A stretch of DNA of 64,000 bases. Origin: Myxococcota bacterium. Lineage in GTDB: Bacteria; Myxococcota_A; UBA9160; UBA6930. The number at the start of each line of letters is the position of its first letter. Position 1 is the first letter of the stretch. Below the pieces are notes generated by a model. That model was not told where the DNA came from and did not search any database. It saw only the letters and a list, made by a program, of their open reading frames with translations. This document shows positions 19,585 to 61,179 of this stretch, piece by piece. The position numbers and the translations under genes were made by a program. The DNA is taken from positions 5,376,001 through 5,440,000 of the forward strand of contig OZ245002.1 of assembly GCA_965223415.1 (NCBI GenBank). The letters are read 5' to 3'.

Positions 19585-20193
19585 ATGGCGCAAGAAGAGC
19601 AGCAGAAGATCCGGTCCCGTCTTCGAAGCTACGAGCGAAAGCTCGAGCAAGAGAAAAGGAAGTTCGGCTACTACCACGACGGCGCGGGGAAGCGCTACCA
19701 GATTGCGCCCCACCATATGCTGCTAGGCGACAACGCCGGTGCGCTCGCAGCCTTCGAGTGGTTCGAGCACGAGTTCGATGAAGATATCGGAACGCCCGAC
19801 CACTCGCTTTGTTGGAGCCTCGCGCTCCACCGTGCCGGCAACGAAATCGGCGCTGCCAAGAAGCTGCGGCAGGCCATGCTCAGCAATCTGTACCTCGTTC
19901 CGCACTTGCTCGGTGCGCCGATCTCCGAGCTGGACATCTGGCATGGATCCAGCGACGCGGAGGCCAGGTACGTCGATCACATCCCCGATCAGTATCTCAA
20001 GCTCTGGACCGATGAAGAACGAGAGTGGGCCTCGGGGCTCTACCGAAGCCCCGGCTTCCAGTCCGCCCGCGAGCGGTACATCGAGATCAGCAAGCTCTTG
20101 GACAGCACCCGACCCGGGCCGGAGAGAACTCGTCTGGTCAGGGAGATGCACGAGCTGACCGGTCCGGCTGATCCTTTACTCAAGTCCAGGTAG
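19585..20193 (+). CDS. Hypothetical protein (C-terminus runs into IS481 end)
   Basis: GGAGG RBS, plausible composition; family not recognised. Confidence 0.6.
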   Translation: MAQEEQQKIRSRLRSYERKLEQEKRKFGYYHDGAGKRYQIAPHHMLLGDNAGALAAFEWFEHEFDEDIGTPDHSLCWSLALHRAGNEIGAAKKLRQAMLSNLYLVPHLLGAPISELDIWHGSSDAEARYVDHIPDQYLKLWTDEEREWASGLYRSPGFQSARERYIEISKLLDSTRPGPERTRLVREMHELTGPADPLLKSR

Positions 20194-33039: not shown

Positions 33040-33377
33040 CCAGCCCTACCCCTCCCGACGGGTTCCTGGAACCGGCGCGCGAGACGCCGGTGCGTCATGA
33101 GGTGCCGAGGGAGGTCGAGGTCAGGATCTACGCCCAGCCCGTGTAGGGCTCGCCGCCGTCGTCACGACTCCGAGTCGAACCCGGCCAATCCGCGCCCGGA
33201 TCCTGGGCCCGCACCTGCCGATTGGGTCCTGCCTCCCATCTCGATTTCGGTGGACGGGGAGGTCGCTTGTAGCCCGCGCGGTCCCCGGCGCGAGAAGCGC
33301 CGGAAACGCGGCACTTGCCCGCAGAGCGTGCGGGTCACGTGAAACCCGAAAAGCTGAATGAAATCAGTTAGATGTCT

Positions 33378-33472
33378 GGGCGGACGGGACTCGAACCCGC
33401 GGAGCCGGGCGATAAGACCCCGGAATCGTGAGGGTTTTTCTCGGCGACCCCGTGCTCAAGGTGTGCTCAAGG
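33378..33472 (-). repeat. tRNA-Asp 3' fragment att-like site 2 (type A)
   Basis: GGGCGGACGGGACTCGAACCCGC...GTGCTCAAG x2; near copy of site 1. Confidence 0.88.
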
Positions 33473-33516
33473 CGAGCAACCAACAGGCATCGGCGCGTCC
33501 GAGCCTTGGAGCCTCC

Positions 33517-36567: not shown

Positions 36568-36774
36568 GGCGGCGGGGGATCGCAGGTCCCTCGCCGTCGT
36601 CAACGTCCTGGGCGTCAGCCCCTATGGCCGCTTTTCAGACGTCCTTCTATGGCCGGTTTTGGGTGTCCACCGAGGGCCATGGCGCAAGGCGCGCGCCCTG
36701 GACCGGGCGGTGCGTATCCCACTCGTATCCCGACTCCCAGGCGGTCGGGAAACCCTAGAGAATCCGGAACCTTG

Positions 36775-36871
36775 TGGCGGGGCGGACGGGACTCGAACCT
36801 ACAACCTCCGGCTGTAACTCCGCGGAAACCCGGGGGTTCGTGAGGCGGAGGCTTGTATCCCGTTGTATCCC
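36775..36871 (-). repeat. tRNA-Asp 3' fragment att-like site 3 (type B)
   Basis: TGGCGGGGCGGACGGGACTCGAACCTACAACCTCCGGC...TGTATCCCGTTGTATCCC; GTATCCC x2 also at 36714-36731. Confidence 0.9.
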
Positions 36872-36930
36872 ACCAGGGCGAGGGCGCTCCGGCTGGCTGG
36901 TGACCTCGCGCCTTGTGTAGCCTCTCACAC

Positions 36931-37131
36931 ATGGCGACCAACCTCGATCTCGACCCCAACCTCGTCGAGCGCGCCCTGGCCCTGAGCGGGGCCCCTACCA
37001 AGAAGGCGGCTGTGACGGCAGCCCTCCAGGAGTTCATCGCGCGGCGTGAGCAGCGCGGGCTCCTCGAGCTCTTTGGCAAGCTCGAGTGGGATCCTGGCTA
37101 CGACTACAAGCGTGAGCGCTCCCGGGATTGA
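36931..37131 (+). CDS. vapB: VapB-like antitoxin
   Basis: MATNLDLD..L...AL..SG..TKK.AV..AL.EFI; overlaps PIN toxin. Confidence 0.88.
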   Translation: MATNLDLDPNLVERALALSGAPTKKAAVTAALQEFIARREQRGLLELFGKLEWDPGYDYKRERSRD

Positions 37132-37532
37132 GCCTGTTCGTCGACACGAGCGTCTGGTCGCTCGCACTGCGCCGCGACCGTCCACCCGACGTGCCAGAGG
37201 TCGGCGCGCTCGAGCGGGCGCTCGCGGAGGGCGAGTTGATCACTACCACCGGCCTCGTCTACCAGGAGCTCCTCCAGGGGTTCCATGGCCCGCGCGACCA
37301 GGAGGCGATCGTGGCGCACTTCGGCGCCCTGCCCTTCCTGACGCCCGATCGCCACGATCACTTCGAGGCCGCGCAGTTGCGCAACCGGGCCCGCCGTCGG
37401 GGAGTCCAGGTCGGCACGATCGACGCGATCCTCGCCCAGCTCTGCATCCGCTACGAGCTACGGCTGCTCACCACCGACGCGGACTTCGCGCGAATCGCCG
37501 AGCAAGAGCCGCTGGAGCGCTGGATGCCGTAG
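37128..37532 (+). CDS. vapC: VapC PIN-domain toxin
   Basis: VDTSVWS, IDAILA, LLTTDADF. Confidence 0.92.
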   Translation: MSLFVDTSVWSLALRRDRPPDVPEVGALERALAEGELITTTGLVYQELLQGFHGPRDQEAIVAHFGALPFLTPDRHDHFEAAQLRNRARRRGVQVGTIDAILAQLCIRYELRLLTTDADFARIAEQEPLERWMP

Positions 37533-37542
37533 CAGGCCAGCC

Positions 37543-37558
37543 GGGGATTCGAACCCCC
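37543..37558 (-). repeat. tRNA T-arm fragment (Arg-type)
   Basis: GGGATTCGAACCCCC as in 43360-43374, 10 bp after the vapC stop. Confidence 0.5.
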
Positions 37559-37612
37559 TGCGCCAGCGACATGAGGGGACGTCGCACAGGCCACATCGGC
37601 CCGGCCCCCGCA

Positions 37613-38991: not shown

Positions 38992-39897
38992 GTGAGTGTG
39001 TTCACGGACAAGGTCGCGATCATTACCGGCGGCGCTTCCGGCATCGGCCGGGCACTCGGGGAGGCGCTGGCCCGGGCGGGGGCGCGGGTGGTGCTCGCCG
39101 ACCGCGACGCGGAGCGGCTCTTCCGAGCAGGCGAAGGCCTCGGCTCCGCCGGTGCGAGGGCCCGGACGGCCATCCTCGATGTCCGGGACTCCCGCGCGGT
39201 ACACGAGCTCGTCGAGAAGACGGCGCAGGAGCACGGCCGGCTGGACTACCTCTTCAACAACGCCGGGATCGGCGTCTTCGGCGAGGCCCGCGACGTCTCA
39301 CTCGAGGACTGGCGCAACGTCGTCGACGTCGATCTCTACGGCGTCGTGCACGGTGTCACCGCCGCGTACCCGCTCATGGTGGAGCAGGGCTCCGGCCACA
39401 TCGTCAACACGGCTTCGCTCGCCGGATTGATTCCCGGGGTCGGCGGGGCCTCCTATTCTGCAGCCAAGTACGGCGTGGTCGGCCTCTCACACGCCCTGCG
39501 CTTGGAGGCGGAGGCTCTGGGCGTCAAGGTGAGCGTGGCGTGCCCCGGCTTCGTCGAGACGGCCTTCCAGACCAGCAAGGTGGTGGGGCTGAACCGCGAG
39601 GCGTTCCTCGCCGGAGCACCGAAGCTCATGCCCGCGGACCGGTGTGCGCGGGACATCCTGCGCGGAGTCGAGCGCAACCAGGAGACCATCGTCGTCAGCA
39701 CCCTCGCCAAGGTCGCCTGGCGCTCGTACCGGTACGCGCCCGGCCTGGTGAGGTGGACCATGCGAAGAACCCTCAGAGAGATGCGCGAACTGCGCACCGA
39801 GCCATCCAGACGTCAGGGGTCCGAGATCAGGCGCTCGCCGCACGACCAAGGGCAGCCAAAGCGCCGAACCAAGCACCGCCAGAACGAGAATAGATGA
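38992..39897 (+). CDS. SDR family oxidoreductase (C-terminus reads into repeat flank)
   Basis: TGGASGIG, FNNAG, YSAAK. Confidence 0.88.
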   Translation: MSVFTDKVAIITGGASGIGRALGEALARAGARVVLADRDAERLFRAGEGLGSAGARARTAILDVRDSRAVHELVEKTAQEHGRLDYLFNNAGIGVFGEARDVSLEDWRNVVDVDLYGVVHGVTAAYPLMVEQGSGHIVNTASLAGLIPGVGGASYSAAKYGVVGLSHALRLEAEALGVKVSVACPGFVETAFQTSKVVGLNREAFLAGAPKLMPADRCARDILRGVERNQETIVVSTLAKVAWRSYRYAPGLVRWTMRRTLREMRELRTEPSRRQGSEIRRSPHDQGQPKRRTKHRQNENR

Positions 39898-39914
39898 ACG
39901 ATTCCGGGTACTTA

Positions 39915-40011
39915 TGGCGGGGCGGACGGGACTCGAACCTACAACCTTCGGCTGTAACTCCTCGGAAACGAAGGGGTTCTTGAGGCTGAAGCCTGTATCC
40001 CGTTGTATCCC
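39915..40011 (-). repeat. tRNA-Asp 3' fragment att-like site 4 (type B)
   Basis: Same core and TGTATCCC x2; left flank 39811-39914 resembles 43451-43555. Confidence 0.9.
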
Positions 40012-40061
40012 GAACCCCGACGGGCCCTGCTTCTGATAGCCAATTGGCTACCATTCGGACC

Positions 40062-40388
40062 ATGTCGGTCGCAAGCATCGTCCGGGAGGCCCGCCGCCGC
40101 GCGGGCCTGACCCAGGCCTCATTGGCCCAGAAGGCGGGCGTTCCGAAGTCCACCGTAGGCCGGATCGAGTCCGGGGCTCGAACGCCTTCGGTCGAGCTCG
40201 TGGAGCGGCTCGTCCGAGCGGCCGGGCTCGAGGTCACCATCGCCTTGTCCGAGCCCGATCCCGGAACCGACTCCTTGTTCGAGCGCACGCTACGCCGCAC
40301 ACCTGCAGAGCGACTCGCCGATGCGACTCGAGCGGCGCGCTTCGTCCTGCGCGGCAGGCGCGAGATCGCGGCCGCGGCCGATGGCTAG
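40062..40388 (+). CDS. XRE-family HTH protein (putative antitoxin)
   Basis: REARRRAGLTQ..LA.KAGV..STV.RIESG; palindrome TAGCCAATTGGCTA at 40037-40050. Confidence 0.85.
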   Translation: MSVASIVREARRRAGLTQASLAQKAGVPKSTVGRIESGARTPSVELVERLVRAAGLEVTIALSEPDPGTDSLFERTLRRTPAERLADATRAARFVLRGRREIAAAADG

Positions 40389-40896
40389 TCGCGACTTCGA
40401 CCCGGAGAAGATGCTCTCCGTGCTGGCGGAGGCAGGCGTGGAGTTCGTCCTCATCGGCGGTATGGCGGCAATCCTGCACGGCGACGTCGGGGTCACCGTC
40501 GACCTGGATGTCGTTCCTGACCGCGAAGCGGCGAATCTCGAGCGTCTCGCGCGAGCTCTACAAGAGCTTGGAGCACGCATCCGCACCGAGGGTGAGCCGG
40601 AGGGATTGGCGTTCGATTGCTCGGCCCAGTTCTTCGCCAACCTGTCTCCTGACTCGATCGTGAACATGACCACGCAGGCAGGCGACCTGGACGTCACGTT
40701 CTGCCCGAGCGGAACGCAGGGCTTCCGGGACCTCCGGCGAGACGCCGTTGAAATCGAAGCGGCCGAGCGCCTACACATCCTGGTGGCATCGCTCGCAGAC
40801 ATCATTCGCTCGAAGGAAGCTGCCGGTCGAGAGAAAGACCGCCTCGCCCTGCCCCGCCTTCGTCGACTACTGGATCGCCTCGGCGAGAGCGAGTAG
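40381..40896 (+). CDS. Nucleotidyltransferase-like protein (putative TA partner)
   Basis: FVLIGG.A..LHG...T.DLD, SK.AAGR.KD. Confidence 0.8.
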   Translation: MASRDFDPEKMLSVLAEAGVEFVLIGGMAAILHGDVGVTVDLDVVPDREAANLERLARALQELGARIRTEGEPEGLAFDCSAQFFANLSPDSIVNMTTQAGDLDVTFCPSGTQGFRDLRRDAVEIEAAERLHILVASLADIIRSKEAAGREKDRLALPRLRRLLDRLGESE

Positions 40897-40914
40897 CCGC
40901 GGCTGGGGGCCCGC

Positions 40915-41030
40915 CCCCCGACCCCCAGGTTCGAAGCCTGAAGGGACCCGTAGGAAATCCAAATAGTTACGGGATTCCGAGCGGGAATACGCGGGAATGA
41001 GCGGGAATACGGGCACAAAATGGTCACACC
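40915..41030 (-). repeat. tRNA-Arg(TCG) fragment plus GCGGGAATNN x3 flank
   Basis: CCCCGACCCCCAGGTTCGAAGCCTG; 10-bp triple repeat at 40981-41010. Confidence 0.8.
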
Positions 41031-43346: not shown

Positions 43347-43401
43347 TGGCACGCCGGGAGGGATTCGAACCCCCGACCCCCAGGTTCGAAGCCCGATGCT
43401 C
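43347..43401 (-). repeat. tRNA-Arg(TCG) 3' two-thirds (incomplete tRNA)
   Basis: Reverse complement GAGCATCGGGCTTCGAACCTGGGGGTCGGGGGTTCGAATCCCTCCCGGCGTGCCA; 5' acceptor strand and D-arm absent. Confidence 0.88.
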
Positions 43402-43555
43402 GATGTCGAACCACCGGACAACGCAGTTCGAAGAGCCGCGCGCTTCCGGGCGTCGGGGATCCGAGATCTGGCGCTCCGCGCAACAACCAAGGGCAACCAT
43501 AGCGCCGAACCAAGCACCGCCAGAACGCGAATTACTCAGCGAATCCAGCGGGTTA

Positions 43556-43652
43556 TGGCGGGGCGGACGGGACTCGAACCTACAACCTCCGGCTGTAACC
43601 CCGCGGAAACGCGGGGGTTCGAAGAGGTGAAGCTTGTATCCCGTTGTATCCC
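43556..43652 (-). repeat. tRNA-Asp 3' fragment att-like site 5 (type B)
   Basis: Same core and TGTATCCC x2. Confidence 0.9.
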
Positions 43653-43692
43653 GCTGCGGGCAGCCGAGGGCTCCGACGCCCATGGATCGGTT

Positions 43693-43708
43693 GTAGCTTT
43701 AAAGCTAC
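43693..43708. promoter_or_regulatory. Perfect palindrome, candidate TA operator
   Basis: GTAGCTTTAAAGCTAC, also at 58858-58873. Confidence 0.6.
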
Positions 43709-44061
43709 CCTAGCTCGGTGCCGACGGAGGTCGAGGTCAGAATCTACGCCCTACCGGACGGCAGCGAGCCCTACACGCGGTGGGAGGCGGCACTCAGGGA
43801 CAGACAGGCGCGCGCACGGATCCGGGCGCGGATCGGACGGCTTCGGCTGGGCAACTTCGGCGACGCCAAGCGCGTCGGTGAGGTGTTCGAGCTTCGGGTG
43901 CCCGCCGGGCCCGGCTACCGCATCTACTACGGGCGGGACGGCGACGCCGTGGTGGTCCTGCTCTGCGGCGGAGACAAGTGTCGCAGGACGTGATATTCGA
44001 GGGCTAAGAGGACACGTAGATTTGCGCACCTCCTGTTGAGCCGCTGCGCGGCACGTTCCCC

Positions 44062-45348
44062 GTGAGGGAGGGGGGCGTGGGGCAGCGGCGACTGAGGCAG
44101 GAGGAAGTGATGACGATCGAAGTGCTGCACGAGCGGGGGTGCTCGAACCGGGAGATCGCCCGCCAGCTGGGGATCCGGGAGAGCGCGGTGCGCTACCGGC
44201 TGAAGCGGCTGGCGGAGGGGGCGCGAGACGGCCGGAGCGGGAAGCCCTTCCTGGCCGAGGCGGTCCACGAGGTGATCGCGGAGTGGCTGGAGGCGAGCTC
44301 GGGAGGCCGTGGCGTGAACCTGCAGGAGCTTCACGAGTTCCTGGTGGAGGAGCACGGGTACACGGGGAGCTCCAAGAGCGTGCAGCGGTACGTGCGGGCC
44401 CGGTTCCCGAGACCGAAGGTGCGGAGCCGGCGTCGGGTGGAGACACCGCCCGGGGCGCAGGGTCAGGTGGACTGGGGCGAGTTTCCGGGCGTGCGGATCG
44501 GGGGCCAGGAGGTGGACCTGCATGCCTTCCACCTGGTGCTCTCGCACTCGCGGCGAGAAGCGGTGGTGTGGTCGGAGCGGGCGGACACGCTGGCGTGGCT
44601 GGACGTGCACAACCGGGCCTTCGAGCGGCTGGGCGGGGTGCCGGCGGTGCTGCGGGTCGACAACGTGAAGACAGCGGTGGCGAAGGGGGCGGGGCCATGG
44701 GGGACGGTGAACCCGGCTTACGCGAGCTATGCCGGGGCCCTTCGCTTCCACGTGGACGCCACCCGTCCCCGCCAGCCGCAGGAGAAGGGGAAGGTGGAGC
44801 GTCGGATCCTGGGGCACCGGCGGGGCTTCGATCCGCGTCGGCGGGAGCACGAGAGCCTGGAGTCGCTGCAAGCGTGGACGGACGGCCAGGTGGCGCGCTC
44901 GAGCCACCGGCGGCAGTGCCCGGCGACGGGCACGACGGTCTTCCAGGCGTGGGAGGCGGAGAAGCCCCATCTCGGGGCCCTGCCCGAGCGGCTTCCCGAG
45001 CCCTTCGACCTGGCCGTGATGCGACGTGTCGGGCGCGACGCCACGGTGCGCTTCGAGGGGCGTACCTACAGCGTCCCCTTCCGCTTCGTCGAGCAGAGCG
45101 TCGAGGTGCGCGGCTGCGCCCGGCAGGTGCAGGTCTGGGCCGAGGGCTCGGTGGTGGCCGCGCACCCGCGCCACACGCGAAGCCGCCTGCTGCTGGACCC
45201 GAGCCACTACGAGGGGCCGAGCACGGAGGGGGTGGAGGCGCCCGTACCGCTCGGGCGCATGGGTCGACGCCTCCAGGAGCTGTGGGCGATGGAGCCGGAG
45301 CAGCGGCCGATCGACCTCTATGCCGATCTGGCGGAGGTGGCGCGATGA
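44062..45348 (+). CDS. istA: IS21 transposase
   Basis: Same protein as 10275-11561. Confidence 0.95.
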   Translation: MREGGVGQRRLRQEEVMTIEVLHERGCSNREIARQLGIRESAVRYRLKRLAEGARDGRSGKPFLAEAVHEVIAEWLEASSGGRGVNLQELHEFLVEEHGYTGSSKSVQRYVRARFPRPKVRSRRRVETPPGAQGQVDWGEFPGVRIGGQEVDLHAFHLVLSHSRREAVVWSERADTLAWLDVHNRAFERLGGVPAVLRVDNVKTAVAKGAGPWGTVNPAYASYAGALRFHVDATRPRQPQEKGKVERRILGHRRGFDPRRREHESLESLQAWTDGQVARSSHRRQCPATGTTVFQAWEAEKPHLGALPERLPEPFDLAVMRRVGRDATVRFEGRTYSVPFRFVEQSVEVRGCARQVQVWAEGSVVAAHPRHTRSRLLLDPSHYEGPSTEGVEAPVPLGRMGRRLQELWAMEPEQRPIDLYADLAEVAR

Positions 45349-46145
45349 CGGCGGGAAACCCGGTGCCCAAGAAGGGCGGCAAGGTGGATCTCGACCCGAC
45401 CCGCGAGCGGCTCGTGCGCCTCGGCCTCCATCACGCGGCCGAGCACATCGGCGAGGAGCTGGCCCGAGCGACCAAGGACGACCTCGTGCCCCACCGCTTC
45501 CTCGACCTGCTGCTCGAGGCCGAGCTGCAGCACCGCGAGGAGCGGAGGATGAAGACCTCGCTCCGTCTCTCGGGCCTTCCCACGGGGCAGACCCTCGGCA
45601 ACTTCGACTTCGCCTTCCAGCCGAGTGTGGAGCGGAGCCGGATCGAGACGCTGGGCACCTGCGCGTGGATCCGGGCCAAGGAGAGTCTGCTGATCCAGGG
45701 TCCGCCGGGAGTGGGCAAGACCCACCTGGCGGTGGCCCTGGGGGTGCGGGCCGTGGAGAACGGCTTCTCCGTGGCCTTCCATCGCCTCGAGGACCTGCTG
45801 GCGGCCCTCAAGCGCGACGCCGAGATCAGCCCGCAACGGCTGCGGCGGCGCAAGCACATGAACGTGGCGCTCCTCGTCATCGACGAGGTCGGCTTCGAGC
45901 CCATGACGCGCCAGGAGGCGAGCCTCTTCTTCCGGCTCGTCTCCTACCGCTATGGGAGGGGCTCGATCCTGATCACCACGAACAAGGGCATCGCCGACTG
46001 GCCCGAGGTGCTGGCGGGCGACGAGGTGCTGGCCACCGCCATCCTCGATCGCCTCCTCCACCACAGCCAGGTGCTCAACATCTCGGGGCGGAGCTACCGG
46101 CTCCGCGAGCTCGAGCAGGCCGCGGGGCAAAGCGCCCAGCGTTGA
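45345..46145 (+). CDS. istB: IS21 helper ATPase
   Basis: GPPGVGKT, LVIDEVG, LDRLLHH. Confidence 0.95.
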   Translation: MTAGNPVPKKGGKVDLDPTRERLVRLGLHHAAEHIGEELARATKDDLVPHRFLDLLLEAELQHREERRMKTSLRLSGLPTGQTLGNFDFAFQPSVERSRIETLGTCAWIRAKESLLIQGPPGVGKTHLAVALGVRAVENGFSVAFHRLEDLLAALKRDAEISPQRLRRRKHMNVALLVIDEVGFEPMTRQEASLFFRLVSYRYGRGSILITTNKGIADWPEVLAGDEVLATAILDRLLHHSQVLNISGRSYRLRELEQAAGQSAQR

Positions 46146-46349
46146 GGCCCCAGAGGGCGGCCTGACGGCCGTGCTCTCCTTCGGAGAGCGGAAGAGAAGA
46201 AGGAAGAACCGAACATCAACCCAGGGGGGTGCGCAAAACTAGCCGTCCTCTTAGCGCGCAAGAGATGACGTCCCTCGACAACAAGGGATCACAGGCGAGA
46301 GACATCGAGCGCGCCGAAGGGTATTGGCGCGACTACCGGAGTCGAAACG

Positions 46350-46652
46350 ATGGCAAGAGCTAGAGACTACCGAGAGCACCTGGACGAGGTGCTGAAGGAC
46401 CACGCGGAGGCGGTGGCCTACCTGAACGCCGCTCTAGCAGAGGACGACCCGGAAGTGTTCCTCCTCGCGCTCCGCGACGTGGCCCGCACTCGGGAGGGTG
46501 GACTCGCAGGCCTGGCCGAGGCCGCGCAGCTCAACCGCGAGCACCTCTACCGGATGCTCTCCGAGAACGGCAACCCGGAGCTCCGCAGCCTGGAGGCACT
46601 CCTCGACGCGCTGGGCTTCCGCCTGAGCGTCGAGCTGAAGGCAACGGGCTGA
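46350..46652 (+). CDS. Addiction-module antidote protein (HTH)
   Basis: YLNAAL, ALRDVAR, RE.LYR.LS..GNP. Confidence 0.9.
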   Translation: MARARDYREHLDEVLKDHAEAVAYLNAALAEDDPEVFLLALRDVARTREGGLAGLAEAAQLNREHLYRMLSENGNPELRSLEALLDALGFRLSVELKATG

Positions 46653-46702
46653 AGCAAGCCGGGAACGCCGCGACCCTTCAGCCGAAGGCCAACGGCTGGT
46701 CG

Positions 46703-46860
46703 CCGACCCCCAGGTTCGAAGCCTGGTCCACGAAGAAGAAGTGACGCGGGGTTACGTCTCGTTGCAGTGCAGGGGGGTGCAATAGGGTGCAGGGAGGGGT
46801 CGTTTCGACGGCACCAGATCCGCAGACGGCACTATGCGGCGCCTCTCGAGAGACTCTCTC
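46703..46860 (-). repeat. tRNA-Arg(TCG) fragment plus conserved GGGTGCA flank
   Basis: CCGACCCCCAGGTTCGAAGCCTGG; flank matches 61046-61172. Confidence 0.85.
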
Positions 46861-46975
46861 GGTCCGTGATCACACGTGAAGGCATCAACAACAAGGGGTC
46901 GCATAGCAGAGCAATCCTCGGGTGAGCGACAACCCCGTCGATCGACCGGCGCTCCTGGTGGGCCCGTGGCGGGCT

Positions 46976-49798: not shown

Positions 49799-50053
49799 CT
49801 AGGCGATACCAGGGTACGGTCCGGCCACATCCTTTACAGGAGTCCAGGGACATCGTTTACACCCGGGGGATGCCCTGGATGGAAACGGATGTCATTTCTC
49901 ACGGGCATGACTCACCTTTTCTCACGGGCATGACCCAGGCCTGACCGCGGTTTTCTCACGAGCATGACCCACCCCAGATGGGGGGGGCTCAGGAGGAGGC
50001 CGGTCCCGTGGCCGACCCAGGCCATTCTGCGGCGCCAGAGGAGGCGCAGGCAG

Positions 50054-51766
50054 ATGGCGTATCGCGAGGTCGGCATGTGGGAGATTCTGGAGGTGCTCCG
50101 CCGGGCGCACCGAGGCGAGAGCCAGGTGGCGATGGCGCGGGCCACGGGGCACACGCGCAAGACGATCCGGCGCTACGTGCAAGTCGCCGGGGAGCTGGGC
50201 TGGGTCGCCAGGGGGCCGAGGGAGCCGGATGAGGCCCTGGCCCAAGGGGTGGCGGCTCGGGTGCGGCCTGTGCCCACGCAGCGCGACGCGGGAGAGAGCG
50301 AGGCGCAGCTGGCGCCGCATGCCGACCGGATCCGAGCGTGGCTCCAGCCCGAGGCGGGTGGCCGAGGACTGCGGCTGACGAAGGTCTACGACCTGCTCGG
50401 GCGCGAGGGCGTGCGCGTCCCCTACAGCTCGCTCCACCGCTTCGCGGTCCGCCACTGCGGGTTCCAAGACCGGCGCCGGGTGACGGTGCGCATGGCGGCG
50501 GTGGCCCCCGGCGAGCTCGCCGAGGTCGACTTCGGCCGCCTCGGCATGGTCTGGGATCCGGAGACCGGGCGCCGCCGCACCGTTCATGCCCTGATCGTCA
50601 CCCTCGTCCATAGCCGCCACCAGTACGTCCACGTGACCTACGGCCAGAAGCTCCCCGATCTGCTCGAGGGGCTCGAGGACGCCTGGGCGTTCTTCGGCGG
50701 GGTCCCGGTGCGCGTGGTGCTGGACAATCTGAAGGCGGCCGTCACGAAGGCCGACCGCTACGAGCCGATCTTCCAGCGCACCTTCGCCGAGTACGCCCAC
50801 TACCGCGGCTTCGTCATCGATGCCGCCGTGCCTCGGCATCCCAAGGGCAAGCCCCACGTCGAGCGCCAGGTGCAGTACGTGCGCGAGCGCTTCTTCCGTG
50901 GCGAGCAGTGGCTGGGACGCGACCACGTGCAGCGCGAGGCCGCGCGCTGGTGCCTGGAGGTCGCCGGCCAGCGCACTCACGGGACGACGCGCAAGAGGCC
51001 CCTGGCCGTCTTCGAGAACACGGAGAAGCCGGCTCTGCAGCCCCTCGTGCGCCCGCGCTTCGATCCGCCCACCTGGGCCGAGGCGAAGGTCCACCCCGAC
51101 CACCACGTCCAGTTCCAAAAGGCCTTCTACACCGTGCCCACCCGCCACGTGGGCAAGCGCGTCTGGGTTCGCGGCGACTCGAAGCTCATCCGCATGTACG
51201 TCGACGGCGAGTGCATCAAGACCCACGAGCGCGTGGACCCTGGCTGCCGCTCCACCGACTACCACGACTATCCGCCCGAGCGTGCCCCCTACGCCATGCG
51301 GGACCCGGAAGCGGCGATCCGCCAGGCGCGCGACCAGGGGCCTCACATTGGGCGCTTCGCCGAGAAGCTCCTGGCCGGCCCCTTCCCCTGGTCCAAGCTC
51401 CGCCAGGCCCAGAAGCTGCTTCGCCTCGGCCACAAGTACGGCCTGCCGCGCGTCGACGCCGGCTGCCGCAGGGCCCTCGCCTTCGACCTCATCAACACGA
51501 AGCGCCTCGAACGCATCGTGGCCGAAGGCATCCAGCCGCTCGGCGACCCCAGCACCCCCGGACAGCTCCTGCTCCTGCCGCCCCGTTTCCTGCGCCCGCA
51601 AGGGCACTTCACCCACCCCAACGACAACCCCGACAAGGAGACCACCCCCCATGACGACCGAGATCAACCCGTCCCTCAAGACCCTGCTCAAACGCCTGAA
51701 GCTCTCGGGCATGCTGGCCACGCTCCCCGATCGCGTGGCCTACACCCGGAAGACGAAGCTCCCTGA
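50054..51766 (+). CDS. istA: IS21 transposase
   Basis: Same protein as 12890-14602. Confidence 0.93.
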   Translation: MAYREVGMWEILEVLRRAHRGESQVAMARATGHTRKTIRRYVQVAGELGWVARGPREPDEALAQGVAARVRPVPTQRDAGESEAQLAPHADRIRAWLQPEAGGRGLRLTKVYDLLGREGVRVPYSSLHRFAVRHCGFQDRRRVTVRMAAVAPGELAEVDFGRLGMVWDPETGRRRTVHALIVTLVHSRHQYVHVTYGQKLPDLLEGLEDAWAFFGGVPVRVVLDNLKAAVTKADRYEPIFQRTFAEYAHYRGFVIDAAVPRHPKGKPHVERQVQYVRERFFRGEQWLGRDHVQREAARWCLEVAGQRTHGTTRKRPLAVFENTEKPALQPLVRPRFDPPTWAEAKVHPDHHVQFQKAFYTVPTRHVGKRVWVRGDSKLIRMYVDGECIKTHERVDPGCRSTDYHDYPPERAPYAMRDPEAAIRQARDQGPHIGRFAEKLLAGPFPWSKLRQAQKLLRLGHKYGLPRVDAGCRRALAFDLINTKRLERIVAEGIQPLGDPSTPGQLLLLPPRFLRPQGHFTHPNDNPDKETTPHDDRDQPVPQDPAQTPEALGHAGHAPRSRGLHPEDEAP

Positions 51767-52457
51767 GCTCGACCTCCTGGAGCTCGTCCTTCAGGACGAA
51801 GTCGATCGCCGCGACCACAAGAACCTCGAGACGCGCCTTTCCCGCGCCGGCTTCGAGGAAGAGCAGACCCTCGAGGCCTTCGACTGGGATGCCCCCGTCA
51901 CCTTCGATCGCGATCGCGTGAAGGACCTCTTCTCCCTCGGCTTCCTCGAGCGCCACGAGGACGTCATCCTGCTCGGCCCCGTGGGCGTGGGCAAGACCTT
52001 CCTGGCCTCCGCCCTGGGACACGCCGCCTGCCGGGCCGGGCACCACGTCCTCTTCCTCCGCGTCGACCGCATGTTCCACTGGCTCCACCAGTCGCGAGCC
52101 GACCTCTCGACCGAGAAGGTCTTCCGACGCCTCCTCGCCCCGGACCTCCTCGTCCTCGACGACTTCGGCCTCCGGCGCCTCTCCGCCGAGCAGTCGAGCG
52201 ATCTCTACGAGGTCGTCCTCGAACGCCACCGCCGCGCTTCGACGATCGTCACCAGCAACCGCGCCATCGAGGAATGGATCCCCCTCTTCGACGACCCCAT
52301 CCTGGCCCAGAGCGCCCTCGACCGCCTCGCCCACAACGCCTACCAGCTCGTCATCGAGGGCGAGAGCTACCGCAAGCAACAGCGCCCCGGCGAAATGCCG
52401 ACCCACACCCCCGCCAATCCCCAGCGCCGAAGCCGCCGCCGAACCCGCGTCCGCTGA
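51651..52457 (+). CDS. istB: IS21 helper ATPase
   Basis: Same protein as 12199-13005. Confidence 0.93.
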   Translation: MTTEINPSLKTLLKRLKLSGMLATLPDRVAYTRKTKLPELDLLELVLQDEVDRRDHKNLETRLSRAGFEEEQTLEAFDWDAPVTFDRDRVKDLFSLGFLERHEDVILLGPVGVGKTFLASALGHAACRAGHHVLFLRVDRMFHWLHQSRADLSTEKVFRRLLAPDLLVLDDFGLRRLSAEQSSDLYEVVLERHRRASTIVTSNRAIEEWIPLFDDPILAQSALDRLAHNAYQLVIEGESYRKQQRPGEMPTHTPANPQRRSRRRTRVR

Positions 52458-53929
52458 CGCCAAACAAGGAGCGTGCTACCTCATCCACCGGCCCGGGACC
52501 CATGGGTCAACCCCGTGAGAATACCTGGGTCATGCCCGCGGGAATCGACAAACGGATGCAAGGAAGCAGCGGCAGGCGTTCGTTCGCGACTACGAGAGCG
52601 GTCAGTGGTCGATGAGCGAGCTGTGTCGGCGGTATCGTGTCTCCCGGCCCACAGGCTACAAGTGGCTCGGGCGCTTCGAGTCGGAGGGGGAGGCCGGCCT
52701 GGAGGAGAGGTCCCGTGCGCCGGCTCGCTGCCCGCACAGGACGCCAGCGAGCGTGGAGCGCAAGATCCTGGCCCTTCGCGCCGAGTACGGCTGGGGTGCG
52801 AAGAAGATCTTGCAGGTGCTCGAGCGCCGGTACCCGAAGATGCAGAGGCCCGCGCGAAGCACGGTGAACGCGATCCTCGATCGCCACGGCAAGCTGCGCA
52901 AGAACCGACGTCGGAAGAAGTGGTCGCATCCCGGCGCTGCGTCGCTGTCGACCGACCACCCGAACCAGGTGTGGCCCGCGGACTTCAAGGGCCAATTCAA
53001 GATGCGCAACGGTCGCTACTGCTACCCGCTGACCGTGACCGACCACTGCAGCCGCAAGCTCCTGATGTGCCGCGGGCTGCACTCGATTCGCACCGAGGGC
53101 GTGAAGCCGCTGTTTCGGGAGCTCTTTCGCGAGGTCGGACTTCCCGAGGCGATTCGCACCGACAACGGTGCCCCCTTCGCATCGACCGGGATCCACGGCC
53201 TGTGCGAACTCAACGTGTGGTGGATGAAGCTCGGCATCGTGCACCAGCGCATCCGTCCTTCGAGCCCCCAACAGAACGGGCAGCACGAGAGGATGCACAA
53301 GGACCTCAAACGCGAGGCGACCCGCCCGCCTGGCGCGAACCTCAACGTCCAGCAGCGGATGCTCGAGGCCTTTCGTCGACGCTACAACGAGGAGCGGCCG
53401 CACGAAGCACTCGGTGGAGCGTTTCCCGAGGAGCGCTACGAGCCCTCGCCGCGGCCGTACCCCAGTCGCCTCTCGCCGCCGGAGTACCCTGCGCAGATGG
53501 AAGTGCGCCGCGTGAGCCGGGCCGGGACGTTTCGGCTGAAGGCGAAGCAGCCCTTCCTGAGCAACGCACTGGCCGATGAGTACATCGGACTTGAAGAGAT
53601 CGGCGACGGCATCTGGAGCATCGTCTACTACGAGACGATCCTGGGCCGCATCGACGAGCGCAGCAGGAAGATCACCGGAGTCTGAGAGGTGTAAACGATC
53701 TACCTGGACTTGTGTAAAGGATCAGCCGGACCGGTCACAGGGCACCGGGCGATCCCGAGCGTTGGCGTCTGGCCTACAACCATGCGGAGCGATTGGGGGT
53801 GTCGGGTGCCGGTCGGTGCCGTCACTGCCGAGCGGCCGAGTCTCGCAACCCCTCGAGAACACTGCGTGTCCGAACTGAGCCCCAGCCGCGGCACCTGAGG
53901 GTCGCAGCGGAACCGATGCAACCCCGCGT

Positions 53930-55014: not shown

Positions 55015-55216
55015 GCAAGAAGCCTCGGATCAGCCAGCCCACCTCTCTGGAGGATCTGGCCGCCCTCGTCTGCTCCACGCTTGTCGAGGGACGTCATCTC
55101 TTGCGCGCTAAGAGGACGGCTAGTTTTGCGCACCCCCCTGGGTTGATGTTCGGTTCTTCCTTCTTCTCTTCCGCTCTCCGAAGGAGAGCACGGCCGTCAG
55201 GCCGCCCTCTGGGGCC

Positions 55217-56017
55217 TCAACGCTGGGCGCTTTGCCCCGCGGCCTGCTCGAGCTCGCGGAGCCGGTAGCTCCGCCCCGAGATGTTGAGCACCTGGCTGTG
55301 GTGGAGGAGGCGATCGAGGATGGCGGTGGCCAGCACCTCGTCGCCCGCCAGCACCTCGGGCCAGTCGGCGATGCCCTTGTTCGTGGTGATCAGGATCGAG
55401 CCCCTCCCATAGCGGTAGGAGACGAGCCGGAAGAAGAGGCTCGCCTCCTGGCGCGTCATGGGCTCGAAGCCGACCTCGTCGATGACGAGGAGCGCCACGT
55501 TCATGTGCTTGCGCCGCCGCAGCCGTTGCGGGCTGATCTCGGCGTCGCGCTTGAGGGCCGCCAGCAGGTCCTCGAGGCGATGGAAGGCCACGGAGAAGCC
55601 GTTCTCCACGGCCCGCACCCCCAGGGCCACCGCCAGGTGGGTCTTGCCCACTCCCGGCGGACCCTGGATCAGCAGACTCTCCTTGGCCCGGATCCACGCG
55701 CAGGTGCCCAGCGTCTCGATCCGGCTCCGCTCCACACTCGGCTGGAAGGCGAAGTCGAAGTTGCCGAGGGTCTGCCCCGTGGGAAGGCCCGAGAGACGGA
55801 GCGAGGTCTTCATCCTCCGCTCCTCGCGGTGCTGCAGCTCGGCCTCGAGCAGCAGGTCGAGGAAGCGGTGGGGCACGAGGTCGTCCTTGGTCGCTCGGGC
55901 CAGCTCCTCGCCGATGTGCTCGGCCGCGTGATGGAGGCCGAGGCGCACGAGCCGCTCGCGGGTCGGGTCGAGATCCACCTTGCCGCCCTTCTTGGGCACC
56001 GGGTTTCCCGCCGTCAT
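55217..56017 (-). CDS. istB: IS21 helper ATPase
   Basis: Same protein as 45345-46145. Confidence 0.95.
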   Translation of the reverse strand: MTAGNPVPKKGGKVDLDPTRERLVRLGLHHAAEHIGEELARATKDDLVPHRFLDLLLEAELQHREERRMKTSLRLSGLPTGQTLGNFDFAFQPSVERSRIETLGTCAWIRAKESLLIQGPPGVGKTHLAVALGVRAVENGFSVAFHRLEDLLAALKRDAEISPQRLRRRKHMNVALLVIDEVGFEPMTRQEASLFFRLVSYRYGRGSILITTNKGIADWPEVLAGDEVLATAILDRLLHHSQVLNISGRSYRLRELEQAAGQSAQR

Positions 56018-57300
56018 CGCGCCACCTCCGCCAGATCGGCATAGAGGTCGATCGGCCGCTGCTCCGGCTCCATCGCCCACAGCTCCTGGAGGCGTCGACC
56101 CATGCGCCCGAGCGGTACGGGCGCCTCCACCCCCTCCGTGCTCGGCCCCTCGTAGTGGCTCGGGTCCAGCAGCAGGCGGCTTCGCGTGTGGCGCGGGTGC
56201 GCGGCCACCACCGAGCCCTCGGCCCAGACCTGCACCTGCCGGGCGCAGCCGCGCACCTCGACGCTCTGCTCGACGAAGCGGAAGGGGACGCTGTAGGTAC
56301 GCCCCTCGAAGCGCACCGTGGCGTCGCGCCCGACACGTCGCATCACGGCCAGGTCGAAGGGCTCGGGAAGCCGCTCGGGCAGGGCCCCGAGATGGGGCTT
56401 CTCCGCCTCCCACGCCTGGAAGACCGTCGTGCCCGTCGCCGGGCACTGCCGCCGGTGGCTCGAGCGCGCCACCTGGCCGTCCGTCCACGCTTGCAGCGAC
56501 TCCAGGCTCTCGTGCTCCCGCCGACGCGGATCGAAGCCCCGCCGGTGCCCCAGGATCCGACGCTCCACCTTCCCCTTCTCCTGCGGCTGGCGGGGACGGG
56601 TGGCGTCCACGTGGAAGCGAAGGGCCCCGGCATAGCTCGCGTAAGCCGGGTTCACCGTCCCCCATGGCCCCGCCCCCTTCGCCACCGCTGTCTTCACGTT
56701 GTCGACCCGCAGCACCGCCGGCACCCCGCCCAGCCGCTCGAAGGCCCGGTTGTGCACGTCCAGCCACGCCAGCGTGTCCGCCCGCTCCGACCACACCACC
56801 GCTTCTCGCCGCGAGTGCGAGAGCACCAGGTGGAAGGCATGCAGGTCCACCTCCTGGCCCCCGATCCGCACGCCCGGAAACTCGCCCCAGTCCACCTGAC
56901 CCTGCGCCCCGGGCGGTGTCTCCACCCGACGCCGGCTCCGCACCTTCGGTCTCGGGAACCGGGCCCGCACGTACCGCTGCACGCTCTTGGAGCTCCCCGT
57001 GTACCCGTGCTCCTCCACCAGGAACTCGTGAAGCTCCTGCAGGTTCACGCCACGGCCTCCCGAGCTCGCCTCCAGCCACTCCGCGATCACCTCGTGGACC
57101 GCCTCGGCCAGGAAGGGCTTCCCGCTCCGGCCGTCTCGCGCCCCCTCCGCCAGCCGCTTCAGCCGGTAGCGCACCGCGCTCTCCCGGATCCCCAGCTGGC
57201 GGGCGATCTCCCGGTTCGAGCACCCCCGCTCGTGCAGCACTTCGATCGTCATCACTTCCTCCTGCCTCAGTCGCCGCTGCCCCACGCCCCCCTCCCTCAC
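56014..57300 (-). CDS. istA: IS21 transposase
   Basis: Same protein as 44062-45348. Confidence 0.95.
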   Translation of the reverse strand: MREGGVGQRRLRQEEVMTIEVLHERGCSNREIARQLGIRESAVRYRLKRLAEGARDGRSGKPFLAEAVHEVIAEWLEASSGGRGVNLQELHEFLVEEHGYTGSSKSVQRYVRARFPRPKVRSRRRVETPPGAQGQVDWGEFPGVRIGGQEVDLHAFHLVLSHSRREAVVWSERADTLAWLDVHNRAFERLGGVPAVLRVDNVKTAVAKGAGPWGTVNPAYASYAGALRFHVDATRPRQPQEKGKVERRILGHRRGFDPRRREHESLESLQAWTDGQVARSSHRRQCPATGTTVFQAWEAEKPHLGALPERLPEPFDLAVMRRVGRDATVRFEGRTYSVPFRFVEQSVEVRGCARQVQVWAEGSVVAAHPRHTRSRLLLDPSHYEGPSTEGVEAPVPLGRMGRRLQELWAMEPEQRPIDLYADLAEVAR

Positions 57301-57383
57301 GGGGAACGTGCCGCGCAGCGGCTCAACAGGAGGTGCGCAAATCTACGTGTCCTCTTAGCCCTCGAATATCACGTCCTGCGACA

Positions 57384-58559: not shown

Positions 58560-58720
58560 AGACCCCACCCGGCGAACTCCAACAACGGCTCGATGGGCGC
58601 GGTTGTATCCCGCTTGTATCCCGACCCGCGCACACGTCGAGAACACGAGCGAGCACGCCCACTTGCAGACGAAGCGTGCGGGTTTCGAGAAACCCGAAAA
58701 GCTGAACGAAATCAGCTAGA

Positions 58721-58817
58721 TGGCGGGGCGGACGGGACTCGAACCTACAACCTCCGGCCCTAAGTGCCCGGAAACACAATGGTTCAGACGACTGAAGCTT
58801 GTATCCCGTTGTATCCC
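58721..58817 (-). repeat. tRNA-Asp 3' fragment att-like site 6 (type B variant)
   Basis: Same core, TGTATCCC x2; second pair at 58603-58622; left flank resembles 33312-33374. Confidence 0.9.
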
Positions 58818-58882
58818 GCCATCCGCAGGCAAGGGCTCCGACATCCGTGGTGTGGTTGTAGCTTTAAAGCTACGCTAGCTCG

Positions 58883-59221
58883 GTGCCGACGGAGGTCGAG
58901 GTCAGAATCTACGCCCTGCCGGACGGCAGCGAGCCCTACACGCGGTGGGAGGCGGCACTCAGGGACAGACAGGCGCGGGCACGCATCCGGGCGCGGATCG
59001 GACGGCTTCGGCTCGGCAACTTCGGCGACGCCAAGCGCGTGGGTGAGGTGTTCGAGCTTCGGGTTCGCGCCGGGCCCGGCTACCGCATCTACTACGGAAG
59101 GGACGGCGACGCCGTGGTGGTCCTGCTCTGCGGCGGAGACAAGGGATCACAGGCGAGAGACATCGAGCGCGCCGAAGGGTATTGGCGCGACTACCGGAGT
59201 CGAAACGATGGCAAGAGCTAG
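58883..59221 (+). CDS. RelE/HigB-like addiction-module toxin
   Basis: GNFGD.K.VG.V.ELR...GPGYRIYY, LLCGGDK.SQ.RDI. Confidence 0.92.
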   Translation: MPTEVEVRIYALPDGSEPYTRWEAALRDRQARARIRARIGRLRLGNFGDAKRVGEVFELRVRAGPGYRIYYGRDGDAVVVLLCGGDKGSQARDIERAEGYWRDYRSRNDGKS

Positions 59222-59510
59222 AGACTACCGAGAGCACCTGGACGAGGTGCTGAAGGACGACGCGGAGGCGGTGGCCTACCTGAACGCCGCTCTTGCGGAG
59301 GACGACCCGGAAGTGTTCCTCCTCGCGCTCCGCGACGTGGCCCGCACTCGAGAGGGTGGACTCGCAGGCCTGGCCGAGGCCGCGCAGCTCAACCGCGAGC
59401 ACCTCTACCGGATGCTCTCCGAGAACGGCAACCCGGAGCTCCGCAGCCTGGAGGCACTCCTCGACGCGCTGGGCTTCCGCCTGAGCGTCGAGCTGAAGGC
59501 AACGGGCTGA
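59208..59510 (+). CDS. Addiction-module antidote protein (HTH)
   Basis: Near-identical to 46350-46652. Confidence 0.9.
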   Translation: MARARDYREHLDEVLKDDAEAVAYLNAALAEDDPEVFLLALRDVARTREGGLAGLAEAAQLNREHLYRMLSENGNPELRSLEALLDALGFRLSVELKATG

Positions 59511-59566
59511 AGCAGCCGGGAACGCCGCAACCCTTCAAGCGAAGGCCGCCGCTGTCCCCCGACCCT

Positions 59567-59800
59567 TGTATCTACTCCACTCACCCGGATCTGGTTCAAT
59601 AGGGTCAGAACGGGTTTCGGGGGAGGGTCGCCGTCCCGACCCAGAGGCATGGTCCTCGTACCTGAGAGAGGCGCCCTCGCCCGATCTCGCAAGCTCGAAC
59701 GGTATCCCGAGGCAGCGGTCTGCCGCTCGTCCTCGCATGCACAAGGAAGAGCACCGAGGTCGGCACCGAGGCTCCCGACGCTCCCGTTCGAGGAGGAAGA
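59567..59800 (+). ncRNA. Predicted IS110 bridge RNA (ends approximate)
   Basis: Segments matching target (59635-42, 59660-66) and donor junction (59699-706, 59741-45) within stem-bounded loops. Confidence 0.75.
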
Positions 59801-59805
59801 AGGGG

Positions 59806-60981
59806 ATGCGCTTCGTTGGGATCGACATCGCCTCGGAAACGCACGTCGTCGCGATGGTGGGAGAAGACGGGGGCGTGCTGCTGAAGCCGGTCTCGTTCCG
59901 GGAGGAGGCGGCTGGCTACGCACTGCTGTGGGAGAAGCTGGGAGGCCCCGAGGACACGCTCGTAACGCTCGAGGCAACGGGGCACTACTGGAAGAACCTG
60001 TTCGCGGCGCTTGCGGCGAGGGGTTTTGCCGTGGCGTTGATCAACCCGCTGCGCAGTCGCCGGTTCGCACAAGAAGACTTGGAGCGGACGAAGACCGACG
60101 CAATCGATGCGCTCGGCCTGGCTCGCTTCGGAGCACAGAAGCGTCCGAGGGTGACTCGCCTTCCGGACGCGGCGACAGAAGAGCTTCGTGAGCTCGTCCG
60201 GCTCCGCGATCGTCTGGTTCAGGACTTCGGGGACTGCACCCGGCGGCTCCACCGCATGGTCGATCTGGGCTTCCCAGAGCTCAAACGGTACGTGAAGCAC
60301 CTCGATAGCCAGCTGTCGACGGGGCTGCTGCGGGAGTACCCCACGGCAAGAGCCTTCCAGGAAGCCTCTGTGGGGCGCGTGGCAAAGCTTCGCTACGACG
60401 GTCGTCATCGTGTAGGCGATGCGCTCGCGAAGCAGCTCGTCGAGGCTGCGCAGAACTCGGTGGGCGCCCATCATGGCCCGGCCTACCAGGTGCAGGTGCG
60501 TTACCTGTGCGAAGACATGGACGTCTTGCGCAAGAGACTCGGCGACATCGACCGCGACATCGCGGATCAGCTATCCGCGCACGAGGTCGGAAGCTTGCTG
60601 ACGACGATCGATGGGATCGGGCCGACGACGGCAGCACGGCTCATCGCGGAGCTCGGTGACCCGGCCGACTTCGCCACGGCCGCAGCCCTCGCCGCCTACG
60701 TGGGCGTCGTTCCAGGCCTAAAGCAGTCGGGCAAGCGCCAAGGCAAACGCGGGAACCTCTCGCCAATCGGTCACGCGCGGCTACGTCGCGCACTGTGGAT
60801 GCCGACGTTGGTCGCCGTTCGGAAGAACCCCTGGGTGCGGGCCCACTACGAGCGGCTGCGCGACAACGGCAAGCCCGCAAAGGTCGCGCTGATCGCCTCG
60901 ACGAGGAAGCTGCTCATCGCGGTTCACGTCGTGGCGAGGACCCGCAAGCCCTTCGTTCCACAGCTAGAGACCAACCCATGA
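59806..60981 (+). CDS. IS110 recombinase (DEDD)
   Basis: VGIDIA, LEATG, KTDAIDA, GIG, QSG. Confidence 0.95.
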   Translation: MRFVGIDIASETHVVAMVGEDGGVLLKPVSFREEAAGYALLWEKLGGPEDTLVTLEATGHYWKNLFAALAARGFAVALINPLRSRRFAQEDLERTKTDAIDALGLARFGAQKRPRVTRLPDAATEELRELVRLRDRLVQDFGDCTRRLHRMVDLGFPELKRYVKHLDSQLSTGLLREYPTARAFQEASVGRVAKLRYDGRHRVGDALAKQLVEAAQNSVGAHHGPAYQVQVRYLCEDMDVLRKRLGDIDRDIADQLSAHEVGSLLTTIDGIGPTTAARLIAELGDPADFATAAALAAYVGVVPGLKQSGKRQGKRGNLSPIGHARLRRALWMPTLVAVRKNPWVRAHYERLRDNGKPAKVALIASTRKLLIAVHVVARTRKPFVPQLETNP

Positions 60982-61026
60982 ACCGAGAAAACCGGGCCCA
61001 GCCCCTTGCTGAAGATCACGGTATCT

Positions 61027-61172
61027 CAGGTTCGAAGCCTGGTCCAAGAAGAAGAAGTGACGCGGGGTTACGTCTCGTTGCAGTGCAGGGGGGTGCAATA
61101 GGGTGCAGGAAGGTGTCGTTTCGACGGCACCGAGTCGCGGGACGGCACTATACGGCGCCTCTCTAGAGAGTC
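61027..61172 (-). repeat. Remainder of the tRNA-Arg site plus GGGTGCA flank
   Basis: CAGGTTCGAAGCCTGGTCCA...; near copy of 46711-46860. Confidence 0.85.
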
Positions 61173-61179
61173 TCCTCGC

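Follow-up and report, generated by a model that had tools for sequence, protein, structure and literature searches.

The 64,000-nucleotide stretch of Myxococcota DNA considered here (contig OZ245002.1, positions 5,376,001 to 5,440,000; hereafter, the window) contains an insertion sequence (IS) close to its right-hand end. With a probability of roughly 0.85, this is an intact IS of the IS110 group that entered its site, a degenerate tRNA-Arg(TCG) anticodon-arm copy, through bridge-RNA-guided recombination. The element has every sequence-level property of the IS110 group that can be tested and, judged on these, is likely to work like IS621. The element and its target consist of the following parts.

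59558..59564, plus strand: left target (LT), CCCGACC, reverse-complementary to the variable loop of a tRNA-Arg and to the first part of its T-stem; matched by the left target guide (LTG) at 7/7 positions

59565..59566, plus strand: core dinucleotide CT at the left junction; in the empty paralogue, 46709-46710 are CC

59567..59805, plus strand: left end (LE), 239 bp, non-coding, in which the bridge RNA is encoded; it begins TGTAT, as it does in relatives

59806..60981, plus strand: gene for an IS110-family recombinase of 391 amino acids (aa), both Pfam domains being matched over their full length

60982..61024, plus strand: right end (RE), 43 bp, with the terminal ACGGTAT at 61018-61024 as left donor

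61025..61026, plus strand: right copy of the core, CT, as read from the sequence

61027..61041, plus strand: right target (RT), CAGGT, followed by the remainder of the palindrome CAGG-TTCGAAG-CCTG, which is the anticodon stem-loop of tRNA-Arg(TCG) in reverse complement

46702..46715, plus strand: uninterrupted paralogous (empty) site, GCCGACC-CC-CAGGT, found by comparison of the window with itself

The insertion point can be fixed to the base, as the same self-comparison reveals an uninterrupted paralogue of the site and its surroundings at 46281-46861. The left flank (59139-59565) aligns to 46281-46709 with 96.7% identity over 429 bp, and the right flank (61027-61178) aligns to 46711-46861 with 92.2% identity. 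Exactly one base, 46710, lies between these two alignments, and the element therefore comprises 59567-61024 plus one copy of the core, that is, 1460 bp. The left junction reads CCCGACC-CT/TGTAT (59558-59571) and the right junction ACGGTAT-CT/CAGGT (61018-61031). The insertion is scarless, with CT at both junctions and a single dinucleotide at the same place in the empty paralogue. A first-pass annotation of this DNA had reconstructed the target as CCCGACC-CT-CAGGT and the donor junction as ACGGTAT-CT-TGTAT; both readings are as it gave them, and all the strings and coordinates that it quoted are correct on re-reading the sequence. A 239-bp non-coding LE upstream of the gene, combined with a 43-bp RE, is the arrangement of the IS110 group and not that of IS1111. 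The site itself lies 55 bp downstream of a gene for a HigA-like antitoxin.

The recombinase matches DEDD_Tnp_IS110 (PF01548; E 3.4e-36, profile positions 1-155 of 155) and Transposase_20 (PF02371; E 3.3e-28) in Pfam. Its closest solved structures, as identified by phmmer, are those of ISCro4 (9t56, E 4.6e-37) and IS621 (8wt6, E 1.2e-35), and its GID, EAT, KTDAIDA and SG motifs align to solved bridge recombinases. The SG motif, which lies within ...GLKQSGKR..., aligns to the ESG of ISCro4, and this alignment suggests that its serine is the counterpart of S241 of IS621.

The bridge RNA was delineated by comparison with relatives. A scan of genome contigs gave 278 pattern matches, 135 of which were confirmed; the best 80 (L001-L080, from GTDB genomes) were kept, and these share 54-71% aa identity with the window recombinase. 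Their upstream regions align to that of the window through an almost invariant scaffold, which is present in 78 of 81 sequences. The three in which no scaffold was recognisable (L017, L049 and L052) were excluded from all counts, and eleven and then four further sequences were excluded for flanks that were too short or rows that were identical. In the scaffold, GGGAGAGGGTCGCCG is followed by a variable loop and a GAGG....CCTCG hairpin, after which come four variable bases with TGAG and then ATTGGCGCCCTCG, while a second module carries GAACGGTATCC and GCATGNACAAG. The scaffold in the window is identical to the family consensus. No second scaffold was found within the window, the sole exact match being that at 59623; 22 others with two or three mismatches are near random expectation. 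Guide positions were set by homology and not by searching the LE for matches to the flanks. The structural parts are as follows.

59583..59615, plus strand: predicted 5' stem-loop of the bridge RNA, present in the centroid fold of the window only and absent from the family consensus

59623..59678, plus strand: target-binding loop (TBL), with outer stem GAGGGTCGCC (59623-59632) / GGCGCCCTC (59670-59678) around the LTG, a hairpin and the right target guide (RTG); helix 2

59644..59657, plus strand: hairpin GAGG-CATGGT-CCTC between LTG and RTG; helix 3

59681..59763, plus strand: donor-binding loop (DBL), with outer stems CCGATCTCG/CGAGGTCGG and GCTC/GAGC around the left donor guide (LDG), a hairpin at 59708-59735 and the right donor guide (RDG); helices 4-6

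Applied to 74 distinct sequences, RNAalifold gives a consensus of 41 pairs in six helices. For these pairs, 97.6% of cells are paired, compared with 39.7-49.3% when the partners are slid by one to three columns, and compensatory change on both sides occurs in 25 pairs, compared with 10-14 after sliding. On each of five structure measures, all 500 shuffles stay below the observed value. The outer stem of the TBL (helix 2) is paired in 100% of cells, helix 3 shows compensatory AU/GC changes in 18 and 10 sequences, and helices 4-6 of the DBL have 7, 4 and 7 pairs changed on both sides. The first-pass annotation had named guides folded into paired stems as one outcome that would speak against it; this outcome is not what is observed. 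In the consensus structure, the columns of CCCGACCCA, ACCTGAG, ACGGTATC and ATGCACAAG are unpaired internal-loop positions, and these loops are backed by covariation. The order of loops that it proposed, target-binding and then donor-binding, is also the published one.

The target guides and the base next to them are located as follows.

59635..59643, plus strand: LTG, CCCGACC-CA, in the sense of the LT plus the first core base; its last A mismatches the core T, and it abuts the hairpin (register +1)

59660..59666, plus strand: RTG, ACCTGAG, the reverse complement of CT-CAGGT, with a 3' TGAG that is conserved across the clade

59667, plus strand: A, the TBL handshake base, complementary to the T at the very end of the RE (61024); its position is assigned by analogy with IS621, as described in the excerpted text of PMC11208158

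The LTG, within which CCCGACCC occupies 59635-59642, matches the left flank of its own element at 7/7 non-core positions and at the first core base, but it matches 57 other unique flanks at no more than 5/7. This correspondence exceeds chance. On the right, the reverse complement of the RTG reads CT-CAGGT-AC and the flank CT-CAGGT-TC, with three of the four variable bases and the conserved CTCA matching. For the family, the variable bases of the RT match at a mean of 3.14/4 (42 unique loci), compared with 1.19 in 1674 mismatched pairings. The matches to the LT and to CT-CAGGT that had been proposed at first pass thus stand, with two qualifications: the LTG has A and not U as its second core-binding base, and it directly abuts the hairpin. 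Most relatives have an LTG that ends in CU, with one hairpin-closing base after it, although the LTGs of L066, L013 and L005 also abut the hairpin, and L006 likewise has CA as its core-binding bases. The register of most relatives, one base off the hairpin, was tried for the window and rejected, as it yields 4/9 matches, compared with 8/9 for the abutting register. The TBL handshake base is invariant among relatives and is consequently uninformative.

The conserved 3' UGAG of the RTG (59663-59666 in the window) makes every target of the clade CT-CA, which is TGA-G on the opposite strand. At least 100 open codons end exactly at this TGA in 24 of 42 relatives, while the other frames give 16 and 8 of 45. 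The family could be homing to the stop codons of convergent genes, but this evidence is weak, because long spurious open reading frames (ORFs) are common in GC-rich DNA. Further along the LE, a sub-threshold Rfam match to skipping-rope RNA at 59749-59823 (16.8 bits, gathering score 36.7, E 0.29) overlaps a conserved CACCGGCTCCGAGGCTCCCGAC stretch located between the DBL and the start codon; this match is probably due to chance.

The donor side of the bridge RNA and the candidate promoter are composed of the following features.

59699..59706, plus strand: LDG, ACGGTATC, corresponding to the last seven RE bases and the first core base; 8 nt, as in IS621

59737..59745, plus strand: RDG, AT-gc-ACAAG, in discontiguous pairing with CT-TGT-AT, that is, the core and LE bases 1-5

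59746, plus strand: DBL handshake base G, the base after ACAAG, complementary to the last LT base, C (59564), and at the IS621 position

61006..61011, plus strand: candidate -35 hexamer of the junction promoter, TTGCTG; TTG is found there in 48/50 relatives

59569..59574, plus strand: candidate -10 hexamer of the circle-junction promoter, TATCTA; TA is found there in 49/50 relatives with both ends

Within the RDG, ACAAG (59741-59745) is the partner of CT-TGT, while AU, beyond a two-base bulge, is the partner of LE bases 4-5. Covariation between LE base 5 and the RDG is seen at 68 of 69 loci (TGTAT/AT in 38, TGTAA/TT in 28, TGTAC/GT in 2). The discordant row is L023, whose left end was probably misplaced by the detection script and which is also the discordant row in the promoter comparison. 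The first-pass annotation was correct that the LDG and ACAAG match the RE-LE junction. As both guides are conserved clade-wide, the donor match is a family trait and is not peculiar to the IS in the window. The DBL handshake base is complementary to position 7 of the LTG in 48 of 64 unique relatives by Watson-Crick pairing, or in 56 when wobble is allowed. When the RE is joined to the LE, TTGCTG comes to lie 17 bp from TATCTA, and TTG and TA are both so placed in 48/50 relatives. This putative junction promoter may drive expression.

Transcription, RNA binding and catalysis of the element can be envisaged by analogy with IS621. Excision would join the RE to the LE and so assemble a sigma-70-type promoter across the CT core, from which approximately 200 nt of the LE would be transcribed. 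The transcript would fold into a target-binding loop and a donor-binding loop, with the LDG (ACGGUAUC) and the split RDG (AU..ACAAG) holding the RE-LE junction, and a recombinase tetramer would then swap strands at the CT core.

The nature of the target can be read from a tRNA-Arg(TCG)-like minus-strand sequence (43351-43420), which is the only tRNA called in the window (ARAGORN and Rfam). The call is borderline (30 bits, with a gathering score of 29). Its anticodon arm, T-arm and 3' end are good, but its acceptor stem is weak, at 4 bp, and its D-arm is poor; it is probably the 3' half of a tRNA that remained at an attachment site and not a working gene. The right flank of the IS, CAGGTTCGAAGCCTG, is the reverse complement of its anticodon stem-loop, and the left target likewise corresponds, in reverse complement, to its variable loop and T-stem start. 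Joined on the minus strand, the flanks read CCAGGCTTCGAACCTG-AG-GGTCGGGGG, compared with ...GGGCTTCGAACCTG-GG-GGTCGGGGG in 43351-43420. The tRNA-Arg-derived site that had been recognised at first pass is thereby confirmed.

Five other copies of the Arg-like core are present in the window, at 7534, 15965, 40928, 43383 and 46713, and all five have CC at the core, as the first-pass annotation had observed. The cognate 14-mer, CCCGACCCTCAGGT, has five matches with at most two mismatches in the window, compared with 1.33 expected. Two of these, at 15954 and 46702, have C for the core T plus one further mismatch, and another, at 53893, is unrelated to the Arg cores; all three are unoccupied. In the portions of PMC11208158 available, the core T is described as almost invariant and the first core base as flexible, and the near-invariance of the T probably explains why the CC copies are empty. 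The cognate site is accordingly one CT variant of the repeat and not the whole repeat family. The earlier claim that the IS is programmed against the repeat therefore has two parts: the guides do match the site, while homing to the repeat family can only be suggested, because one insertion is known and the other copies are CC and empty.

Several findings weigh against bridge-RNA-guided insertion into a tRNA-derived target. The single-sequence minimum free energy (MFE) structure of 59567-59805 pairs parts of the guides, and the MFE of the LE (-97.7 kcal/mol, z -0.24) is unexceptional, with 83 of 200 shuffles folding equally well. As it is no better than that of shuffles, the single-sequence MFE is uninformative, and its pairing of the guides was given no weight; support for the loops comes from the comparative structure only. 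Comparison of the LE with bridge-RNA covariance models, which the first-pass annotation had suggested, produced no match to any Rfam 15 bridge-RNA family, either at gathering scores over the whole window or at E<=10 over 59500-59860. The best sub-threshold Rfam match is sX15, on the opposite strand (23.2 bits, gathering score 55), and the families matched are unrelated. The match between LTG and LT is moderate for the family as a whole, with a mean of 4.33/7 (58 unique loci), compared with 3.03 in 3278 pairings. According to the accessible passages of PMC11208160, IS621 strongly preferred TBL pairing with both core bases, whereas the LTG of the window has an A facing the core T. Pairing with the first core base only is nevertheless plausibly compatible with function, since the LDG, too, reads no more of the core than its first base in almost every relative and in IS621. 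The sites at 40917 and 43372 are perfect outside the core, where they have C for the core T, and both are unoccupied. Lastly, no second copy of this IS was found among the best 80 of the 135 relatives from genome contigs or in a plasmid collection. The closest of the 80 has 71% aa identity, and the plasmid collection yields six records, the best with 67.9% nucleotide identity.

The known insertion being a single one, the tRNA-like character of the site might be incidental, with the usual target being some other repeat that has the same 14-mer and with the tRNA-Arg ancestry irrelevant. The relatives sit in varied GC-rich sequences, and no tRNA-like motif lies within 40 nt on either side in any of the 77 that bear the scaffold, although many of them lack one flank. 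On the other hand, the match is perfect over 7+1+7 bases, and the window holds a six-copy family of the repeat, in which four copies differ from the 14-mer at no more than two positions. An incidental site is a possibility of some substance, if rather an unlikely one.

Another possibility is that the IS is a dead relic, in which the match between guides and flanks records a past insertion and the element is now immobile. Only one copy is present in the 64 kb, many other ISs crowd the region, and near-cognate sites are empty. This is nonetheless an unlikely explanation, as the ORF is full length with its domain matches intact, the scaffold does not deviate from the family consensus, and the guides, ends and promoter elements are all intact.

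It is very improbable that the site was first CC, like its paralogues, and that the IS inserted despite the mismatch, with repair of the heteroduplex core then making both junctions CT: all five other Arg-like copies are CC, including the 92-97% identical paralogue at 46702, and the LTG leaves the second core base unread anyway, but a CC target should leave CC at one junction and yet both are CT, six of 50 relatives keep a target core of TT or GT (matching the LTG) at the left junction with the donor CT at the right, the RTG reads AG, i.e., CT, and the core T is almost invariant in the excerpts of PMC11208158. Because the left junction keeps the target core, and yet both junctions are CT, the site appears to have been a CT variant already before insertion.

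A more general idea, which is offered as speculation and is on balance doubtful, is that this IS110 parasitises mobile elements. Its guides would home to remnants of attachment sites, made of Arg anticodon arms, around small toxin-antitoxin cassettes, and the core T, demanded by the recombinase and not by the guide, would separate permissive CT remnants from the canonical CC. If this were true, the essential tRNA gene would be spared, and decayed copies would be open to insertion.

The wider neighbourhood of the IS is repetitive. A unit of approximately 100-150 nt is present in six copies on the minus strand, with a mean column identity of 73%.

18690-18840, 33350-33500, 36750-36900, 39890-40040, 43530-43680 and 58695-58845, minus strand: copies of the repeat unit

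Each unit comprises a tandem 10-mer (GGGATACAAC GGGATACAAG or CTTGAGCACAA CTTGAGCACGG), two hairpins, and then an invariant GGTTCGAGTCCCGTCCGCCC...CCA, which resembles the T-arm and acceptor end of a tRNA. No tRNA or transfer-messenger RNA was called in any of the six copies. Small cassettes lie at 36750-37560, 39890-40940, 43555-46861 and 58720-61178. They take the form of a T-arm-like unit, toxin-antitoxin or helix-turn-helix (HTH) genes, and then a tRNA-Arg anticodon-arm core or another T-arm, with VapBC, an Xre-type HTH pair or a HigBA-like pair as cargo. The HigBA-like cassette is duplicated, with 91-97% identity between the copies; the toxin gene of one copy contains an IS21-like element, and the Arg core of the other contains the IS110. 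Tandem repeats (CCTGCACCC / TATTGCACCC) occur near the Arg cores. The cassettes may be attachment-site remnants or integrase-less satellite cassettes, and no Phage_integrase domain was detected among the 57 window ORFs scanned.

The window is also very rich in ISs, which are found at 10192-15160, 43979-46281, 49890-52550, 55081-57383, 20156-21343 and 52550-53737. These include a 2303-bp IS21-like element in three copies with 99.9-100% identity, one of which is split by a 2661-bp element that is also present at 49890-52550. IS481-like copies, rve-domain fragments and a DUF772 transposase are found in addition.

The IS illustrates clearly, but in no unusual way, a mechanism that was described in 2024, and it leaves the known mechanism unchanged. 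Its interest lies in a natural bridge RNA that comes from an environmental clade with GC-rich DNA and is annotated in full: all four guides, one handshake base and a candidate junction promoter are placed to the base. It also provides a natural contrast within 64 kb, between one occupied CT site and two unoccupied sites that differ only by a CC core, which fits the reported near-invariance of the core T. Finally, it adds a tRNA-derived hairpin to the targets of IS110 elements; none was mentioned in the titles and abstracts returned by a literature search, although supplementary target tables might already list some.

Some IS1111 elements target attC sites. More generally, the IS1111-attC group and IS4321/IS5075 are ISs with DEDD transposases that home to recombination sites or to the ends of other mobile elements. 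The IS in the window differs from these, which belong to the IS1111 group, in being of the IS110 type. In the IS1111 group, as far as the available text of PMC11187229 describes it, the guide RNA is downstream of the transposase gene and the order of guides is reversed.

The closest parallel is the bridge RNA of IS621 of Escherichia coli, for which the excerpted accounts (Durrant et al. 2024, PMC11208160; Hiraizumi et al. 2024, PMC11208158) give an LTG of 9 nt, an LDG of 8 nt (A123-C130) and a discontiguous RDG of 9 nt for seven donor bases. To the extent covered by these excerpts, the two elements share the two protein domains, a bridge RNA encoded in the LE, the order of 5' stem-loop, TBL and DBL, an LTG in the sense of the LT, an RTG that is the reverse complement of the core plus RT, an LDG of 8 nt, an RDG of 9 nt in discontiguous pairing with seven donor bases, a CT core, handshake bases, and a promoter at the RE-LE junction, which in the window is predicted. 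They differ in that the proteins are only distantly related (E 1.2e-35, phmmer). On the same partial accounts, the target of IS621 is a repetitive extragenic palindromic (REP) element and not a tRNA-Arg anticodon-arm remnant, and the RTG is 4 nt in wild-type IS621, compared with 7 nt in the window. The LTG of the window IS, unlike that of IS621, reads the first core base only, and the LE of 239 bp is a further difference.

A stem-loop in the target DNA, beside the bases matched by the guides, is a feature shared with ISPpu10 of Pseudomonas putida, another IS110, in which, according to the available part of a preprint (bioRxiv 10.64898/2026.03.19.712850), a stem-loop on the LT side adds specificity. 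That stem-loop is on the 5' (LT) side and includes the LT, whereas the palindrome in the window, the anticodon arm, is on the RT side. Among its own relatives, such as L006 (a Myxococcota metagenome-assembled genome, MAG) and L066 (a Casimicrobiaceae MAG), the scaffold, the LDG, the RDG and the TGTA at the start of the LE are nearly identical to those of the window, but every relative has other variable bases in its LTG and RTG, and other flanks.

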